This document shows positions 2,767-9,882 of a stretch of DNA of 29,553 bases, piece after piece; the first letter of the stretch is position 1; each line of letters starts with the position of its first letter. The stretch spans positions 1-29,553 of the IMG/VR virus record IMGVR_UViG_2579778538_000006; one strand, 5' to 3'. Both the position numbers and the translations under genes were made by a program. The DNA comes from a virus (lineage: Duplodnaviria; Heunggongvirae; Uroviricota; Caudoviricetes). The notes below the pieces were generated by a model, which was not told the origin of the DNA, ran no database searches, and saw only the letters and a program-made list of their open reading frames with translations.

Positions 2767-3068
2767 TGTCCTGTTCTCATTCAGTTGTATTACTGAATAA
2801 CGCCTTAAAAATCGCCGTTATGAAAAATGGCGATTTGTCTCTTATTCAACTTGGTCTTGATAAAGAAAAACGCGAAATAACTGAATCTGTTATCGCGATT
2901 TATCAGAACGAATTAAACCTCCTGTCTGATGTGGTCAATTTACTTGTGAAACGCGCTGTATTTAACAAGCAAATCTCCTCCGTGGATGAACTGACGAAAT
3001 TAACGACAGAAATCGCCAGCTATTGCGCTGATGAATTTAAGAAACTGAACGACAAAAGGAGCTGGTAA
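2763..3068 (+). CDS. Hypothetical early protein (orf81-position), 101 aa
   Basis: ORF translationally coupled on both sides (ATGA / TAATG overlaps); AAAGGAG RBS just upstream of the next gene. Confidence 0.5.
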
Positions 3069-3292
3069 TGCCGGACAACGTGGATTTTATTCAGGAACAA
3101 CAGGCTGAATTACTGGAGCGCCAGATTAACGCGGCAAGGGGGAAGCATTGCGGTGTTTCTGCGCTGGTTTGCGAAGAGTGTGACGCGCCAATACCTGCTG
3201 CCCGTCGTGCGGCTTATCCGTCAGCCACGCGTTGTGTTTCCTGTCAGTCAGTCTTTGAAGCAAAAAACAAACATTACCGGAGAACGGCATGA
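3068..3292 (+). CDS. DksA/TraR-family C4 zinc-finger protein, 74 aa
   Basis: CxxC-x17-CxxC motif (CEEC...CVSC) with the spacing typical of TraR/DksA zinc fingers; located in the early operon just upstream of A as in P2 (orf82 position). Confidence 0.75.
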   Translation: MPDNVDFIQEQQAELLERQINAARGKHCGVSALVCEECDAPIPAARRAAYPSATRCVSCQSVFEAKNKHYRRTA

Positions 3293-3564
3293 GTATTCGT
3301 ATTGAAATTGGCGAACGTTATGTCGTTACCAGTGACAGCTTTCAGTTTATTCTCCACGAGAAAAAGAGAGCGGAAAGCGGTAAAAACGCCGGTCAGGAAT
3401 GGCTGGCGGTGGTTGGTTATTACCCGAAATTAAGCCAGCTCGTTTCCGGCCTGATGCATCACGATATTCTGACCGGAAGCGCAAAATCTTTTGCTGATTT
3501 AAACGCGCAGGTTGAACAACTCAGCAAGCGTTGTTCAGAGGCTTTGGGCTCATATGGCCGTTAA
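3289..3564 (+). CDS. Hypothetical early protein (orf83-position), 91 aa
   Basis: ORF coupled to upstream gene (ATGA overlap); no recognisable motif. Confidence 0.5.
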   Translation: MSIRIEIGERYVVTSDSFQFILHEKKRAESGKNAGQEWLAVVGYYPKLSQLVSGLMHHDILTGSAKSFADLNAQVEQLSKRCSEALGSYGR

Positions 3565-5839
3565 AGCCTCCGGGCGTTTTGTCCCTCCGTCAGCATTTGC
3601 CGCAGGCACCGGTAAGATGTTTACCGGTGCTTATGCATGGAACGCGCCACGCGAGGCTGTCGGGCGCGAAAGACCCCTTACACGTGACGAGATGCGTCAG
3701 GTGCAAGGTGTTTTATCCACGATTAACCGCCTGCCTTACTTTTTGCGCTCGCTGTTTACTTCACGCTATGACTACATCCGGCGCAATAAAAGCCCGGTGC
3801 ACGGGTTTTATTTCCTCACATCCACTTTTCAGCGTCGTTTATGGCCGCGCATTGAGCGCGTGAATCAGCGCCATGAAATGAACACCGACGCGTCGTTGCT
3901 GTTTCTGGCAGAGCGCGACCACTATGCGCGCCTGCCTGGAATGAATGACAAGGAGCTGAAAAAGTTTGCTGCCCGTATTTCATCGCAGCTTTTCATGATG
4001 TATGAGGAACTCTGCGATGCCTGGGTGGATGCGCATGGCGAGAAAGAATCGCTGTTTACGGATGAGGCGCAGGCTCACCTCTATGGTCATGTTGCTGGCG
4101 CTGCACGTGCTTTCAATATTTCCCCGCTCTACTGGAAAAAATACCGTAAAGGACAGATGACCACGAGGCAGGCATATTCTGCCATTGCCCGCCTGTTTAA
4201 CGATGAGTGGTGGACTCATCAGCTTAAAGGCCAGCGTATGCGCTGGCATGAGGCGTTACTGATAGCTGTCGGGGAGGTCAATAAAGACCGTTCTCCTTAT
4301 GCCAGTAAACATGCCATTCGGGATGTGCGTGCACGCCGCCAGGCAAATCTGGAATTTCTTAAATCGTGTGACCTTGAAAACAGGGAAACAGGCGAGCGCA
4401 TCGACCTTATCAGTAAGGTGATGGGCAGTATTTCTAATCCAGAAATTCGCCGGATGGAGCTGATGAACACCATCGCCGGTATTGAGCGTTACGCCGCCGC
4501 AGAGGGTGATGTGGGGATGTTTATCACGCTGACCGCACCGTCAAAGTATCACCCGACACGTCAGGTCGGAAAAGGCGAAAGTAAAACCGTTCAGCTTAAT
4601 CACGGCTGGAACGATGAGGCATTTAATCCAAAGGATGCGCAGCGTTATCTCTGCCGTATCTGGAGCCTGATGCGCACGGCATTCAAGGATAATGATTTAC
4701 AGGCCTACGGTTTGCGTGTCGTCGAGCCACACCATGACGGAACGCCACACTGGCATATGATGCTTTTTTGTAATCCACGCCAGCGTAACCAGATTATCGA
4801 AATCATGCGTCGCTATGCGCTCAAAGAGGATGGCGACGAAAGAGGAGCCGCGCGAAACCGTTTTCAGGCAAAACATCTTAATCGGGGCGGTGCTGCGGGG
4901 TATATCGCGAAATACATCTCAAAAAATATCGACGGCTATGCACTGGATGGGCAGCTCGATAACGATACCGGTAAGCCGCTTAAAGATACTGCCGCGGCTG
5001 TTACCGCATGGGCGTCAACGTGGCGCATTCCGCAATTTAAAACGGTTGGCCTGCCGACAATGGGGGCTTACCGTGAACTACGCAAATTGCCTCGCGGCGT
5101 CAGCATTGCTGATGAGTTTGACGAGCGCGTCGAGGCTGCACGCGCCGCCGCAGACAGTGGTGATTTTGCGTTGTATATCAGCGCGCAGGGTGGGGCAAAT
5201 GTCCCGCGCGATTGTCAGACTGTCAGGGTCGCCCGTAGCCCGTCGGATGACGTTAACGAGTACGAGGAAGAAGTCGAGAGAGTGGTCGGCATTTACGCGC
5301 CGCATCTCGGCGCGCGTCATATTCATATCACCAGAACGACGGATTGGCGCATTGTACCGAAAGTTCCGGTCGTTGAGCCTTTGACTTTAAAAAGCGGCAT
5401 CGCCGCGCCTCGGAGTCCTGTCAATAACTGTGGAAAGCTCACCGGTGGTGATGCTTCGTTACCGGCTACCACACCTTCTGAGCACGCCGCAGCAGTGCTA
5501 AATCTGGTTGATGACGGTGTTATCGAATGGAGTGATCCGGAGGTCGTGAGGGCGCTCAGGGGCGCATTAAAACACGGCCTGAGAACACCAAATCGTCAGC
5601 AAAGAGCCGGAAGCCCGTTAAAACCGCATGAAATAGCGCCATCGGCCAGACTGACCCGGTCGGAACGAATGCAAATTACCCGTATCCGCGTTGACCTTGC
5701 TCAGAACGGTATCAGGCCGCAGCGATGGGAGCTTGAGGCGCTGGCGCGTGGCGCGACTGTAAATTATGACGGGAAAAAATTCACGTATCCGGTCGCTGAT
5801 GAGTGGCCGGGATTCTCAACAGTAATGGAGTGGAGATGA
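3554..5839 (+). CDS. A: Replication initiation protein A (rolling-circle HUH endonuclease), 761 aa
   Basis: HUH-type motif (PHWHMM) followed by a two-tyrosine active-site motif (YIAKYISKN) typical of rolling-circle initiators; start at ATG 3554 (GAGG RBS upstream) gives 761 aa, the length recalled for P2 A. ORF-track start 3512 is probably too early. Confidence 0.9.
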   Translation: MAVKASGRFVPPSAFAAGTGKMFTGAYAWNAPREAVGRERPLTRDEMRQVQGVLSTINRLPYFLRSLFTSRYDYIRRNKSPVHGFYFLTSTFQRRLWPRIERVNQRHEMNTDASLLFLAERDHYARLPGMNDKELKKFAARISSQLFMMYEELCDAWVDAHGEKESLFTDEAQAHLYGHVAGAARAFNISPLYWKKYRKGQMTTRQAYSAIARLFNDEWWTHQLKGQRMRWHEALLIAVGEVNKDRSPYASKHAIRDVRARRQANLEFLKSCDLENRETGERIDLISKVMGSISNPEIRRMELMNTIAGIERYAAAEGDVGMFITLTAPSKYHPTRQVGKGESKTVQLNHGWNDEAFNPKDAQRYLCRIWSLMRTAFKDNDLQAYGLRVVEPHHDGTPHWHMMLFCNPRQRNQIIEIMRRYALKEDGDERGAARNRFQAKHLNRGGAAGYIAKYISKNIDGYALDGQLDNDTGKPLKDTAAAVTAWASTWRIPQFKTVGLPTMGAYRELRKLPRGVSIADEFDERVEAARAAADSGDFALYISAQGGANVPRDCQTVRVARSPSDDVNEYEEEVERVVGIYAPHLGARHIHITRTTDWRIVPKVPVVEPLTLKSGIAAPRSPVNNCGKLTGGDASLPATTPSEHAAAVLNLVDDGVIEWSDPEVVRALRGALKHGLRTPNRQQRAGSPLKPHEIAPSARLTRSERMQITRIRVDLAQNGIRPQRWELEALARGATVNYDGKKFTYPVADEWPGFSTVMEWR

Positions 5840-6291
5840 TGGCAAAAATTCACGAGGTAAAGCTGCACGCAAAATATTTCGACCTTGTGCTGGAAGGAAA
5901 GAAACGCGCAGAGTTTCGGAAAAATGACCGTAATTATGAGCACGGGGACACGTTGATTTTGCATGAATGGGTGCAGGGTGTGTATACGGGGCGAAAGGTT
6001 GAAGCCCGGATAACAGATGTTACTGACCTGTCAGACTGGCTGGAAGATTATGTCTTGCTAAGTATTGAGCTGCTTAATACAGGCGCATATGAGATTGTGA
6101 ACTGGAAAGAACTTAGTGAGCGTGGTCTGGTATTCAGAATTAATCATGAAATTATGCATCAGCTCGGCCTTGCTGTTATGTATGAACCAGAGACGGGGAT
6201 GTCTGGCGGGGCAATGGTTGCCACGGATGGAGCATGGAACTATTCAGATGAACAGATGGAGCGTGCACAGCAAAACGGGTGGCTTGGATAA
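5836..6291 (+). CDS. DUF3850/ASCH-like (PUA-fold) domain protein with C-terminal extension, 151 aa
   Basis: N-terminus 'IHEVKLHAKYFDLVLEGKKRAEFRKNDRNYEHGDTLILHEW' fits my recollection of the DUF3850 consensus (H.LK..P.YF..V..G.K..E.R.NDR....GD.L.L.E); start ATGATG overlaps A stop (5837-5839). Confidence 0.6.
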   Translation: MMAKIHEVKLHAKYFDLVLEGKKRAEFRKNDRNYEHGDTLILHEWVQGVYTGRKVEARITDVTDLSDWLEDYVLLSIELLNTGAYEIVNWKELSERGLVFRINHEIMHQLGLAVMYEPETGMSGGAMVATDGAWNYSDEQMERAQQNGWLG

Positions 6292-6497
6292 TGCACAGAA
6301 TACCAGGCGAGATACCGCACCATAAAACTAAAAATATCAAGCTGATGGCTATTGTTCAGCGTTTACAGCGGATTATGGTCAACGAAAATATGACGCCCGA
6401 TGAGCTGGTCGGGTGTGCCGAAATAGTCCGGGATAATTACGGGCGGTTTAATCATATCGGTCAATCAAGAGTTACGCCACCACCACGCAGACGATAG
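6291..6497 (+). CDS. Small hypothetical protein, 68 aa
   Basis: ORF whose ATG overlaps the upstream stop as TAATG (6289-6293), suggesting translational coupling; C-terminal Pro/Arg-rich tail; no known motif. Confidence 0.35.
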   Translation: MHRIPGEIPHHKTKNIKLMAIVQRLQRIMVNENMTPDELVGCAEIVRDNYGRFNHIGQSRVTPPPRRR

Positions 6498-6720
6498 AGA
6501 ACGCCGCCAGTCGTGAAACTTGTTTTCAGGGCTGGCGGGGTTGAACAACGAGCGAAGCGAGGCGTTAGTTGACAGACATATTTTTACTGCGTTGGTGCCG
6601 GTTTTTGACGGTTGAAAGGAGTTAGGTTGGAGAGCCAACAACTTACAAATATTCAAAAGTAAGCATCCTGTTGCTAACATGAGGTCGATTTTTTATGTGG
6701 ATGATGCAAAAAGGATAGCT

Positions 6721-7452
6721 ATGGATACTATAATCGCTTTTCTATCACTCGCTTTTTTCGTTGCTTTCTTCATCGGGTTAATCAAGCCATCACTGGTGCG
6801 AATGCCAAACCGCAAACGTGCAAGTGCGGTTTATCTCGGAGGAGGTTTTGTATTGAGCATAATTGGTTCAATACTCTATCCAACAGAAAAAAGCCAGCCA
6901 GTTGCTAAAACTGAAACATCAACCGTTGCAGAACACAAAGTCCAAAAAACATTCGAATATGGTGAAAAAACACTCAAGGAATATCGGAACGAGTCAAAGA
7001 AAACACGACACGATATTGTGAATAGTTACATTGATTTTAAGGAAGTTCCAGCCACCGCGTCAGATGCGTTTTATGCCTGCATGAGTGAGTATACATTTAC
7101 CAAAGATGATGAGTTGAAACTCGGTGATGTTCTTGGGTGGTGCTTTAATGATTATGAAAATGACCCGAATTCACTAAACAATAAAATCAATCTTGATACA
7201 TTTCAGAGTAATTTTAGTGGTTGGGATGGTTCTTATCGTCCATTGGAAAAACTAATTAAAGATAATATGAACGATGATTCATCTTATAAACATGTGTCAA
7301 CGGTATATCATTTGGTTTTGAATAAAGACCCGTACGCTATTGTGAAAACTACGTTTCGCGGTACTAATGCTTATGGTGGAGTGGTTAAGCAGACTATAGC
7401 TGCGCGCGTCGACATACGAACGGGAGAGGTTGTATCAATATTAGATAATTGA
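6721..7452 (+). CDS. Membrane-anchored hypothetical protein (two N-terminal hydrophobic segments), 243 aa; AT-rich cargo
   Basis: AAAGGA RBS upstream of ATG 6721; N-terminal hydrophobic helices (IIAFLSLAFFVAFFIGLI and AVYLGGGFVLSIIGSILY) followed by a hydrophilic domain; visibly AT-rich codon usage unlike the prophage backbone. Confidence 0.6.
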   Translation: MDTIIAFLSLAFFVAFFIGLIKPSLVRMPNRKRASAVYLGGGFVLSIIGSILYPTEKSQPVAKTETSTVAEHKVQKTFEYGEKTLKEYRNESKKTRHDIVNSYIDFKEVPATASDAFYACMSEYTFTKDDELKLGDVLGWCFNDYENDPNSLNNKINLDTFQSNFSGWDGSYRPLEKLIKDNMNDDSSYKHVSTVYHLVLNKDPYAIVKTTFRGTNAYGGVVKQTIAARVDIRTGEVVSILDN

Positions 7453-7517
7453 TTATAAGCAATGAGTGTTGAATGGTTTTCTGCACTCATATAAATATGA
7501 ATTTTTTAGGTGATGTA

Positions 7518-8453
7518 ATGGAATATCAACTGGATTTACAAGAGAATGCTATTGATAGTTTTAATGAAGCTTTAGCAAAGTATGAGTTAGGGCAGAGAGG
7601 AGAATTGCGGCAATATAAATTTGCTATCTTGCATTTGTCACATTTTCTTGAGCTGGTGTTGAAGTTATATATTGTTACAGTAGATGAAAATTTACTGTAT
7701 TCCGATTGCTATAAACAAATAGCTACAAGAGCAAAGCAAGAATCAATCAGTCTTTTAGACGCATATAATAAAATTATCGAGGATGGCGTTGATTTAGGAA
7801 GGTTCATTGAAGGGAAATCTAAGCCATATACGATAACCTTAGATCAGGCACTAAACTTTGCTAAGTGTGAGAAATGCGGCATAACTGGGGTTGATTTTGT
7901 AGATATTGATTTTTGTAATGATATAGCTTGGATAAAGAATTTAAGAAATGATATTGAGCATTATCAATTCAGACTTACTCCTAAAGACGCGCGCTTGTGT
8001 ATTGGACGCCTCGTCCGGGGGGTAGCTGAGTTTATTGATATCTTCGATCTTTTTAATCTTGAAGATGAAGTCGGTGCAGATAACTTACAGATATTTCAAA
8101 CTTTAGCTGATGAATACTCTCATCGGCTCTCTGAAGCCAAGAAAGAAGTTGAAGAAAGAGAGGCTGAAGCTTTTTATGGGGTTAGGCATAAATTTTATGA
8201 ATTGGTCGATTGGAAAGTTTATGAATGTCCTGAGTGTTCTAACGACACAATGATTCCCTCTGATGAGTCTTCTACGGGTTACAAATGCACTTTTTGTCAG
8301 AATGAAGATAGTGATGATATTGATGTTGCTTGCGATTGTTGTGGTGCGCAGGCTCCCAGCAGCGAAATGAGCATTTGGCCAATGGATGATGGTGATGTTG
8401 AGTATCGTTGTTACTACTGTTCAGGGCAGTATCAGGCAGATAAAGACTTTTAA
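7518..8453 (+). CDS. Hypothetical protein with HEPN-like R-N-x3-H motif and C-terminal Cys-rich zinc-ribbon-like tail, 311 aa; AT-rich cargo
   Basis: AGGTGA RBS upstream of ATG 7518; 'LRNDIEH' (Arg codon 7944-7946, His codon 7959-7961) matches the Rx4-6H HEPN signature; C-terminus has four CxxC pairs (CPEC, CTFC, CDCC, CYYC); AT-rich; follows the membrane ORF after 65 bp on the same strand. Confidence 0.6.
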   Translation: MEYQLDLQENAIDSFNEALAKYELGQRGELRQYKFAILHLSHFLELVLKLYIVTVDENLLYSDCYKQIATRAKQESISLLDAYNKIIEDGVDLGRFIEGKSKPYTITLDQALNFAKCEKCGITGVDFVDIDFCNDIAWIKNLRNDIEHYQFRLTPKDARLCIGRLVRGVAEFIDIFDLFNLEDEVGADNLQIFQTLADEYSHRLSEAKKEVEEREAEAFYGVRHKFYELVDWKVYECPECSNDTMIPSDESSTGYKCTFCQNEDSDDIDVACDCCGAQAPSSEMSIWPMDDGDVEYRCYYCSGQYQADKDF

Positions 8454-8659: not shown

Positions 8660-8678
8660 GGCGAGGCGGGGAAAGCAC
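8660..8678. other. cos: cos site (19-nt cohesive end sequence, P2-type)
   Basis: Exact occurrence of GGCGAGGCGGGGAAAGCAC, which I recall as the P2 19-nt cohesive end; located just upstream of portal gene Q as in P2. Confidence 0.7.
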
Positions 8679-8847: not shown

Positions 8848-9882
8848 TCAGTCGTTGTCAGTGTCCAGTGAGTAGTTTTTAAAGCGGATGACTTCCTGAC
8901 CGAGCCAGCCGTTTATTTCCCGAATCCTGTCCTGTAGCGGGATAAGCTCATTGCGGACAAAGACCTTTGCCACTTTCTCAATATCACCCAGCGACCCGAC
9001 GTTCTCCGGCTTGCCGCCCATCAACTGAAAGGGGATGCGGTGCGCGTCCAGCAGGTCAGCGGCGCTGGCTTTTTTGATATTAAAAAAATCGTCCTTCGTT
9101 GCCACTTCACTAAGGGGGATAATTTTAATACCGTCGGCTTTCCCCTGCGGGGCATAGAGAAACAGGTTTTTAAAGTTGTTGCGGCCTTTCGACTTCACCA
9201 TGTTTTCGCGAAGCGTTTCGATATCGTTGCGATCCTGCACGGCATCGGTGACGTACATGATGTATCCGGCATGAGCGCCGTTTTCGTAATACTTGCGGCG
9301 GAACAGCGTGGCCGATTCATTCAGCCAGGCAGAGTTAAGGGCGCTGAGATATTCCGGCAGGCCGTACAGCTCCTGATTAATATCCGGCTCCAGCAGGTGA
9401 AACACGGAGCCGGGCGCGAAAGGTGTCGGCTCGTTGAAGGACGGCACCCACCAGTAAACATCCTCCTCAACACCACGGCGGGTATATTTTGCCGGTGAGG
9501 TTTCCAGTCTGATGACCTTACCGGTGGTGCTGTAACGCTTTTCCAGAAACGCATTACCGAACACCAGAAAATCCAGCACAAAGCGGCTGAAATCCTGCTG
9601 GGAAAGCCACGGGTGCGGGATAAACGTTGAAGCCAGAATATTACGTTTGACGTAAATCGGTGAGCTGTGATGCACGGCAGCACGCAGGCTTTTTGCCAGA
9701 CCGGTAAAGCTGACCGGCGGCTCATACCATCTGCCGTTACTGATGCACTCGACGTAATCCAGAATGTCACGGCGGTCGAGTACCGGCACCGGCTCGCCAA
9801 AGGTGAATGCTTCCATTTTCGGAGCGCTGGCGGTGATTGTTTTTGCCGCAGGTTGCGGTGTTTTCCCTTTTTTCTTGCTCAT
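8848..9882 (-). CDS. Q: Portal (capsid vertex) protein Q, 344 aa
   Basis: 344 aa, same as P2 Q; adjacent to cos and co-directional with terminase P on minus strand; ATGA overlap with P stop. Confidence 0.9.
   Translation of the reverse strand: MSKKKGKTPQPAAKTITASAPKMEAFTFGEPVPVLDRRDILDYVECISNGRWYEPPVSFTGLAKSLRAAVHHSSPIYVKRNILASTFIPHPWLSQQDFSRFVLDFLVFGNAFLEKRYSTTGKVIRLETSPAKYTRRGVEEDVYWWVPSFNEPTPFAPGSVFHLLEPDINQELYGLPEYLSALNSAWLNESATLFRRKYYENGAHAGYIMYVTDAVQDRNDIETLRENMVKSKGRNNFKNLFLYAPQGKADGIKIIPLSEVATKDDFFNIKKASAADLLDAHRIPFQLMGGKPENVGSLGDIEKVAKVFVRNELIPLQDRIREINGWLGQEVIRFKNYSLDTDND

Follow-up and report, generated by a model that had tools for sequence, protein, structure and literature searches.

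The window analysed here, the whole 29,553-nucleotide (nt) stretch of IMG/VR record IMGVR_UViG_2579778538_000006, is a P2-like (Peduovirus) genome or prophage segment. Our subject is what follows its replication gene A: a pair of overlapping genes, an orf91-type gene and a small open reading frame (ORF), and behind them a structured 71-nt sequence that we call element E. The features of this region are given below, with the basis for each in brackets.

3512..5839, plus strand: replication gene A (ORF list; Pfam Phage_GPA, E=1.2e-123)
5836..6291, plus strand: intact orf91-type gene, 151 amino acids (aa), two domains (ORF list, Pfam, phrog_1812, AlphaFold2 model)
5848..6066, plus strand: DUF3850/ASCH beta-barrel domain, aa 5-77 of the orf91-type protein (Pfam; AlphaFold2 model)
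6094..6288, plus strand: DUF7415 domain of the same protein, the segment deleted in reference P2 (Pfam; alignments A2 and A8)
6291..6497, plus strand: small gene, 68 aa, TAATG-coupled to orf91, a homologue of PSP3 gp37 (ORF list, phrog_11386, orthologues, AlphaFold2)
6498..6568, plus strand: structured element E, 71 nt (alignment A6, RNAalifold, pair counts)

The orf91-type gene and the small gene

Gene A shares 95-97% nucleotide identity with its counterparts in P2, Wphi and phage 9W, and its stop (TGA, 5837-5839) overlaps the start of the orf91-type gene as ATGA, with the start ATG at 5836 and a second ATG at 5839. The orf91-type gene stops with TAA (6289-6291), and there a TAATG overlap (6289-6293) opens the small ORF, which stops with TAG (6495-6497). 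A preliminary description of the window, made from its letters alone, had already placed a gene across the gene A stop and a TAATG-coupled 68-aa ORF after it; the coordinates and both overlaps are as it gave them. It had also assigned to the first of the two genes a DUF3850 (ASCH/PUA-like) segment followed by a C-terminal extension of about 70 aa. Pfam places the DUF3850/ASCH identity above its gathering thresholds: DUF3850 (PF12961) matches aa 5-77 (E=8.4e-18; 64.8 bits, cut-off 22.9) and ASCH matches as well (E=1.8e-10; 41.8 bits, cut-off 21.2). The extension is present, but it is more than an extension, having a Pfam domain of its own, DUF7415 (PF24187; aa 87-129, E=1.9e-14; 54 bits, cut-off 27). 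Among PHROG families, phrog_1812 covers the full-length protein (E=1.5e-82), and phrog_986, of 'RNA-binding protein' type, matches aa 1-85 (E=1.7e-42). The AlphaFold2 model (predicted local distance difference test score, pLDDT, 85.7) likewise has two domains, an ASCH beta-barrel of the PUA-like kind and a C-terminal helix-helix-strand-strand-helix unit that spans aa 90-146.

Both domains are under purifying selection, with nonsynonymous differences (pN) of 0.22-0.36 against synonymous differences (pS) of 0.56-0.87. The spacing between gene A and orf91 is -4 nt in 50 loci and between -7 and +11 nt in nearly all others, setting aside 5 loci that gave an artefactual value, and the order A, orf91, small ORF is unchanged in orthologues from Enterobacter and metagenomes that are only 52-57% identical. 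Within the barrel, the octapeptide GKKRAEFR (aa 21-28, nt 5896-5919) fits the ASCH motif GxKxxExR, as defined in bioRxiv 10.64898/2026.02.27.708502, through G21, K23, E26 and R28; its K..E.R residues are kept in about 92 of the 96 distinct orthologues.

DUF7415 is a promiscuous domain of about 55 aa, with 196 related clusters in a library at 50% identity. Some examples stand alone and others are joined to dATP/dGTP pyrophosphohydrolase, Rv2179c-like 3'-5' exoribonuclease, thymidylate kinase or further domains; its invariant motif is WKELSxxGLVFRINHEIxHxLGLA. A zincin metallopeptidase, suggested by 'HEIMH' at aa 104-108, was rejected: the first His of HExxH is not conserved (the consensus reads RINxEILHPLG), and only the second His of this stretch is nearly invariant. 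A search of the searchable literature for 'DUF7415' returned nothing. Contigs of T4-like Klebsiella phages (L102-L105, about 176 kb) carry a stand-alone 85-aa DUF7415 gene at 3001-3258, among small early genes that include Acb1 (anti-CBASS), a NUDIX protein and a GmrSD_N-domain protein. In two E. coli proteins (P0017 and P0018), a Cox-like N-terminus is fused to the DUF7415 half of orf91. Both seem to have arisen in defective prophages, through large deletions that took out the entire early operon, and their two independent junctions lie near the same ITDVTDLSDW segment.

Conservation supports the 68-aa ORF of the preliminary description as a gene. The protein aligns with phrog_11386 over aa 1-67 (positions 1-68 of the 69-position profile, E=1.6e-38), and its homologues form 128 clusters in Escherichia, Salmonella, Citrobacter, Enterobacter and Buttiauxella, down to 56% identity. 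Its core (aa 19-52) has a pN of 0.09-0.16 against a pS of 0.71-0.95 in ten diverged orthologues. Across loci its start still overlaps the upstream stop codon, in 51 of them as TAATG and in about 20 as ATGA, and lineages about 55% identical retain the coupling. On this comparative evidence the small ORF is a real protein-coding gene and no chance ORF. Some annotations ('meiotically up-regulated 80 protein') use an internal start; the TAATG-coupled start is the true one, because the N-terminal 18 residues are conserved (M1, E7, I8, P9, H11) and the orthologue in locus L008 has no internal Met. The AlphaFold2 prediction is a hairpin of two helices (10-31 and 36-59, core pLDDT 90-96), disordered at either end; the protein has a variable linker and a C-terminal PPPRR[RP] tail, and no structural or sequence relatives of it were found in the PDB.

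It is scarcely credible that the small ORF is non-coding and owes its conservation to an RNA or DNA signal that overlaps it. Directly downstream there is indeed a strongly conserved non-coding element, and the PPPRR tail is encoded right beside it; yet a core pS near saturation beside so low a pN indicates selection at the protein level, a hairpin is predicted with confidence, and the copy of element E that follows DinI in other phages (see below) shares no 3' sequence with the small ORF. As far as sequence analysis allows, this reading is refuted. The same DinI copy led us to reject the PPPRR tail as a part of the repeat, since it lacks that upstream sequence.

The nearest named relative of the small gene is PSP3 gp37, with a homologue in 186-like prophages (about 74% identity in L004). 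In these, element E lies directly downstream, as in the window, but the gene follows tumA/tumB (DinI-like) in an SOS-controlled operon, whereas that of the window follows orf91 in the early operon.

Distribution of the pair and its form in P2

The region between gpA and gpQ of P2-like phages was defined as a hotspot of anti-phage systems by Rousset et al. (PMC9122126), and the pair sits at its gene A end. In the window the order is gene A (3512-5839), the pair, two AT-rich cargo genes, cos (8660-8678) and the portal gene, so the pair is on the backbone side of the hotspot, as first described. The intermediate base composition noted at the outset also holds, with a GC content of 0.45-0.49 for the pair, between 0.50-0.59 for gene A and 0.32-0.41 for the downstream cargo. 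The far side of the hotspot is marked by:

8660-8678, plus strand: exact copy of the 19-nt P2 cos sequence, GGCGAGGCGGGGAAAGCAC (sequence match to the P2 cohesive end)
8848..9882, minus strand: portal gene (ORF list)

The window thus spans a joined cos site, between the cargo and the portal gene.

Occurrence was surveyed in 5,426 complete E. coli genomes; a scan of species-representative genomes contributed only 7 further loci. The numbers of E. coli genomes with each part were:

gene A 3' end: 1,682/5,426
element E: 525/5,426
small ORF: 457/5,426
DUF7415 segment: 386/5,426
whole pair: 342/5,426

The pair is therefore present in about 20% of the genomes that carry gene A (342/1,682). In most prophages homology stops about 20 nt before the gene A stop and cargo, for example a retron, follows directly. 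Phage 186 and the retron-carrying prophages lack orf91, and in 186 gene A leads straight to the SOS promoter p95. Where cargo starts after the module or after element E, we counted 19 kinds of it among 77 loci, of which at least 15 occur with the pair. By these counts the pair is optional, dispensable and tied to no single cargo type. The preliminary description had asked whether it belongs to the backbone or to the variable part; it is purely neither, being optional in its presence and yet independent of the cargo beside it.

The retron Ec48 prophage of E. coli GSH8M-2 (L005, about 4700-4945) has no orf91, yet between its gene A and its cargo element E is still intact and the small ORF persists as a frameshifted remnant, which suggests that the orf91/small-ORF module was ancestral in this prophage and has since eroded.

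Comparison with the reference phages shows that the window gene at 5836..6291 is the orthologue of P2 orf91 in its intact form. P2 Orf91 (NP_046796, 109 aa) is annotated 'DUF3850 domain-containing protein', lies where the window gene does, shares its ATGA overlap with the end of gene A, and is about 95% identical in nucleotides over the first ~75 codons (~225 nt). Collinearity with the window protein does not extend over its full length: homology breaks at about 6060, and from the end of DUF3850 (window ~6062) P2 runs on, in frame, into codon 2 of the small ORF. Beyond the junction P2 keeps codons 2-10 of the small ORF (GCACAGAATAC.AGG.GAGATAC.GC, ~27 nt) and then enters the tin-old cargo. The alignment that places this junction is:

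L003 (P2, NC_001895) 4520-4650 against window 6040-6075 and 6280-6375: P2 deletion chimera

What P2 has lost is the DUF7415 segment and most of the small gene, including its start codon. The alignment thus shows reference P2 Orf91 to be a deletion chimera and the derived form; reference P2 has no DUF7415 domain, no intact small gene and no element E, whereas the window has all three. Phage 9W has an intact orf91/small-ORF pair. In Wphi (L001, NC_005056, 3937-4680) the pair differs from the window and from 9W by seven single-base insertions, which account for its split annotation as gp91 and gp92; the record is an old one, and the insertions are probably errors of sequencing. Work on 'orf91' should accordingly use the intact two-gene form of the window, 9W and many prophages, not the truncated P2 chimera.

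Candidate roles of the pair

The pair forms the last two genes of a P2-type early (Pe) operon. In lysogens the P2 early operon is switched off by the immunity repressor. Both genes of the pair evolve under purifying selection, each overlaps its predecessor at the stop codon, and the annotation of phage 186 records translational coupling inside the corresponding operon. Promoter-like sites were not enriched here in a scan by consensus only (10, against 7.1 ± 2.7 expected). Because the pair is translationally coupled to gene A and shows no signal of a promoter of its own, it would be expressed alongside the replication proteins when the phage grows lytically or is induced, and be silent in the lysogen, which would make it an early lytic accessory module rather than a prophage defence system.

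As for activity, the ASCH domain would bind, and probably deacylate, N4-acylated cytosine, in RNA such as host tRNA or in a nucleotide. This activity is the likeliest because the GxKxxExR octapeptide matches the catalytic Lys and Glu of the 'GKER' ASCH proteins. In that group the two residues form the catalytic pair for N4-acetylcytidine (ac4C) amidohydrolysis; they are catalytic in TthASCH, EOLA1 and TRIP4, and all 19 of the 19 ASCH proteins assayed removed ac4C from tRNA (bioRxiv 10.64898/2026.02.27.708502). DUF7415 is a probable adaptor that would dock or regulate the ASCH activity, and the small protein, translated along with it, may be the means. That the two are linked is suggested by L097, where DUF7415 sits on a different N-terminal domain and a small-ORF homologue still lies downstream, and by P2, where the DUF7415 segment is deleted and the small ORF destroyed. 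An early lytic accessory pair with N4-acylcytosine activity of the ASCH type is the best overall explanation we have, though a tentative one, which we hold at somewhat less than even.

Several points weigh against it. Expression from Pe only is deduced from gene arrangement, and we infer the ASCH activity of the orf91 family from the motif alone. Four distinct orthologues (L008/P0025, P0027, P0314) have Leu in place of the catalytic Glu, so that not every member has kept catalysis, and what is conserved may be binding. The association of DUF7415 with the small ORF may reflect linkage and no physical partnership, and neither orf91 nor DUF7415 accompanies the small ORF in PSP3 and L004, where it follows tum/dinI. 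A preprint calls orf91 'an essential protein' and offers no evidence for this (PMC12407873); the absence of orf91 from phage 186 and from most P2-like prophages contradicts it.

Among other roles, a counter-defence module has the strongest claim, although we consider it unlikely: the pair would neutralise host or prophage defence early, by removing a modification, sequestering a signal or inhibiting a sensor. This would suit its patchy occurrence (about a fifth of E. coli P2-like prophages), its place at the edge of an accessory hotspot (PMC9122126) and the early lytic expression suggested by the coupling to gene A. The stand-alone DUF7415 genes near Acb1 and NUDIX genes in T4-like Klebsiella phages point the same way, and for the prophage ParB-CTPase-DUF3850 fusions a role in phage-host conflict was suspected by the authors who described them. 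The neighbourhood evidence is circumstantial, however; neither protein resembles known anti-defence proteins, and a survey of P2-like prophages saw only Anti_RM and Anti_CRISPR types, 28 elements in all (PMC13586616). Counter-defence overlaps the early lytic explanation and is compatible with it. A replication accessory that binds single-stranded DNA or RNA at the rolling-circle fork and helps proteins A and B is less probable again. The pair does lie directly downstream of A, coupled to it in every lineage, PUA-like/ASCH folds bind nucleic acids, DUF3850 is fused to ParB-type DNA-segregation proteins in prophages, and DUF7415 is fused to enzymes of nucleotide metabolism. But most P2-like prophages and the viable phage 186 have no such pair, and reference P2 replicates with a truncated chimera that has neither DUF7415 nor the small gene, so any role in replication would be dispensable. 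Counter-defence and replication-accessory roles are inseparable by sequence-level analysis.

There is very little to recommend a prophage-encoded defence or exclusion system of the kind that makes up most of the gpA-gpQ hotspot. Here too position is suggestive, since the pair lies between gpA and gpQ and varies among phages (the 342 of 1,682 genomes above); 'DUF3850/ASCH + HP + HP + HP' is listed among the hotspot loci (PMC9122126), and P2 orf91 was cloned with old and tin in plasmid pFD239. Yet PADLOC gave no significant match to a defence model for either protein (best E=0.022, over 20 residues), nor did NCBIfam give any match for either. Having the orientation of gene A, coupled to it and showing no promoter signal, the pair should be repressed in the lysogen; its GC content is near that of the backbone, unlike the AT-rich cargo, and the cargo types that it accompanies, at least 15, are unrelated to one another.

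For the preferred explanation, an early lytic pair with ASCH-type activity, the closest known systems include the 'GKER' ac4C amidohydrolases and tRNA ac4C erasers (TthASCH, 2DP9; EOLA1; TRIP4-ASCH) and the 'GKTR' protein YqfB (mechanism in PMC6972931). The solved representative of DUF3850, NP_814290 (the 'activating signal cointegrator' of Enterococcus faecalis, PDB 3IUW), is a single domain of 83 residues with no DUF7415 and no link to phage. The prophage-enriched ParB-CTPase-DUF3850 fusions (phrog_986 type) have DUF3850 in common with the window protein, and differ in having a ParB-like N-terminal domain and a neighbouring parA and in having no DUF7415 and no coupled small gene. The gene pair is an already catalogued family, and confirming it changes little. 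The octapeptide does offer a concrete assay, for deacylation of ac4C or N4-acyl-cytosine, and the protein would be the first proposed phage-encoded member of the 'GKER' group of ASCH enzymes.

Element E at the cargo boundary

Element E is the more novel item of the two. It was found while the end of homology downstream of the pair was being mapped: homology to the window ends at 6568-6572 in lineages of both 96% and 66% identity, and element E retains 84-87% identity where that of the flanking genes is down to about 66%. It consists of a long hairpin, with a stem of about 17 bp and the conserved loop UGAAACUUGUUUUCA, and a conserved tail, GUUGAACAACGAGC-NNN-GCGAGGCGUUAG; variable cargo begins at the next base.

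The fold is carried by covariation. In the stem, 96.8% of alignment cells are paired, against 27-53% in slid controls, and 28 cells are changed on both sides, against 11.9 ± 2.7 in shuffles, none of 500 of which scored as high. Pair 12:36 switches between AU and GC in 10 of 28 sequences, pair 9:39 goes from GC to AU, and the whole stem is replaced in L056 and L031. The minimum free energy is -35.2 kcal/mol (z=-4.7) for the plus strand and -20.2 kcal/mol (z=-2.3) for the minus strand, and the G-U pairs also favour the plus strand.

Among the 106 loci examined, 85 have element E, in 92 copies, every one of them in the same sense as gene A; 58 of the copies begin at the base after a stop codon. 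Some loci have two copies, for example:

L004: 3806-3876 and 4211-4281
L101 (PSP3): 3092-3161 and 3496-3566
L027: 4164-4233 and 5131-5200
L100 (phage 186), single copy listed: 5843-5913

The two copies of L004 and PSP3 follow DinI/TumB and the small ORF, those of the L027-type loci follow the small ORF and orf97, and in phage 186 the order is orf97, element E, terminator t95b and cos. The element thus recurs after successive rightward genes in P2-, 186- and PSP3-like phages, with its terminal GTTAG at the cargo boundary; it is absent from reference P2.

Rfam gave no match to element E at gathering thresholds (whole window searched), and a scan of 5700-6900 with E-values up to 5 gave only a chance-level hit to Giardia RNase MRP (20.3 bits against a threshold of 60, E=0.025). 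The sequence was not found in the searchable literature either. Several known kinds of element were considered and set aside. An intrinsic terminator would have a U-tract, which element E lacks, and the mapped 186 terminator t95b lies 24 nt further downstream, so transcripts there read through the element. It is no part of cos, whose exact P2 copy is 2.1 kb away, and it shares only a 7-mer, at chance level, with the nick site of the P2 origin. Nor does it have the defining features of an integron attC site: annotation of the loci examined shows a phage integrase but none of integron type, the 5' box is unlike RYYYAAC, and the bases after the distal GTTAG are unlike the GTTRRRY consensus.

Element E does resemble attC sites and hairpin repeats of the repetitive extragenic palindromic (REP) type, in being a strand-specific imperfect hairpin of 60-70 nt, repeated directly after successive genes, with an AAC...GTT stem foot and a ...GTTAG cassette boundary; this is resemblance, not membership. 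It differs from attC in that the cargo junction lies 26 nt 3' of the hairpin and not at the G|TT of the first GTT, and from both attC and REP elements in its long conserved single-stranded tail.

The tail has a variant in which columns 52-56 of alignment A6 read CTCGC for CGAGC (L012, L029, L041, L074 and the first copies of L004 and L101). The change, found in independent lineages, replaces a direct repeat by a stem of 5 perfect bp with the downstream GCGAG, and may reflect an alternative fold or be a sign of template switching. In L008 (about 5770-5830) and the related L012, L078 and L091, a LexA-box-like sequence, CTGTATG...ACAG, lies about 30 nt after element E and precedes an 86-aa gene, an arrangement that resembles the SOS promoter p95 and tum of phage 186.

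Beyond element E the window carries two cargo genes:

6679-7452, plus strand: membrane protein gene, 243-257 aa, probable start 6721, homologous to phage 186 Orf97 (phrog_3403)
7473-8453, plus strand: gene for a 326-aa protein with an R-x4-H (RNDIEH) HEPN-like motif and a Cys-rich C-terminal zinc-ribbon region

Phage 186 Orf97 is annotated 'expression from plasmid blocks 186 infection', and the first cargo gene corresponds to system 12 ('2 TM', 210 loci) in the hotspot table of Rousset et al. Related loci have a copy of element E after the orf97 homologue; the window has none after 6679-7452. The second gene, which has the lowest GC content in the region, corresponds to system 126 ('FdhE', 21 loci) of that table and matches the PADLOC candidate PDC-S64 (E=2e-17); its product is likely to be an anti-phage effector.

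Element E could be an RNA element of the 3' untranslated region, or it could be a portable site of homology or crossover for cassette exchange. A further step, which we regard as a long shot, would take the small ORF, dinI/tumB, orf97 and possibly some reverse-transcriptase cargo as cassettes that end in element E, with the element as the crossover point for exchanging anti-phage cargo in the A-Q hotspot of the P2 family. There it would either offer general recombination a portable stretch of homology or, folded as a single strand, be the target of a dedicated enzyme such as the HUH nickase A, and E-ending cassettes would, if this is true, be a phage-built analogue of integrons. Transposable elements are almost absent among P2-like phages (PMC13586616). 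Element E marks exactly where the P2 defence hotspot begins on the left, and the recurring pattern of gene plus element bears on how P2-like phages exchange defence cassettes so quickly.

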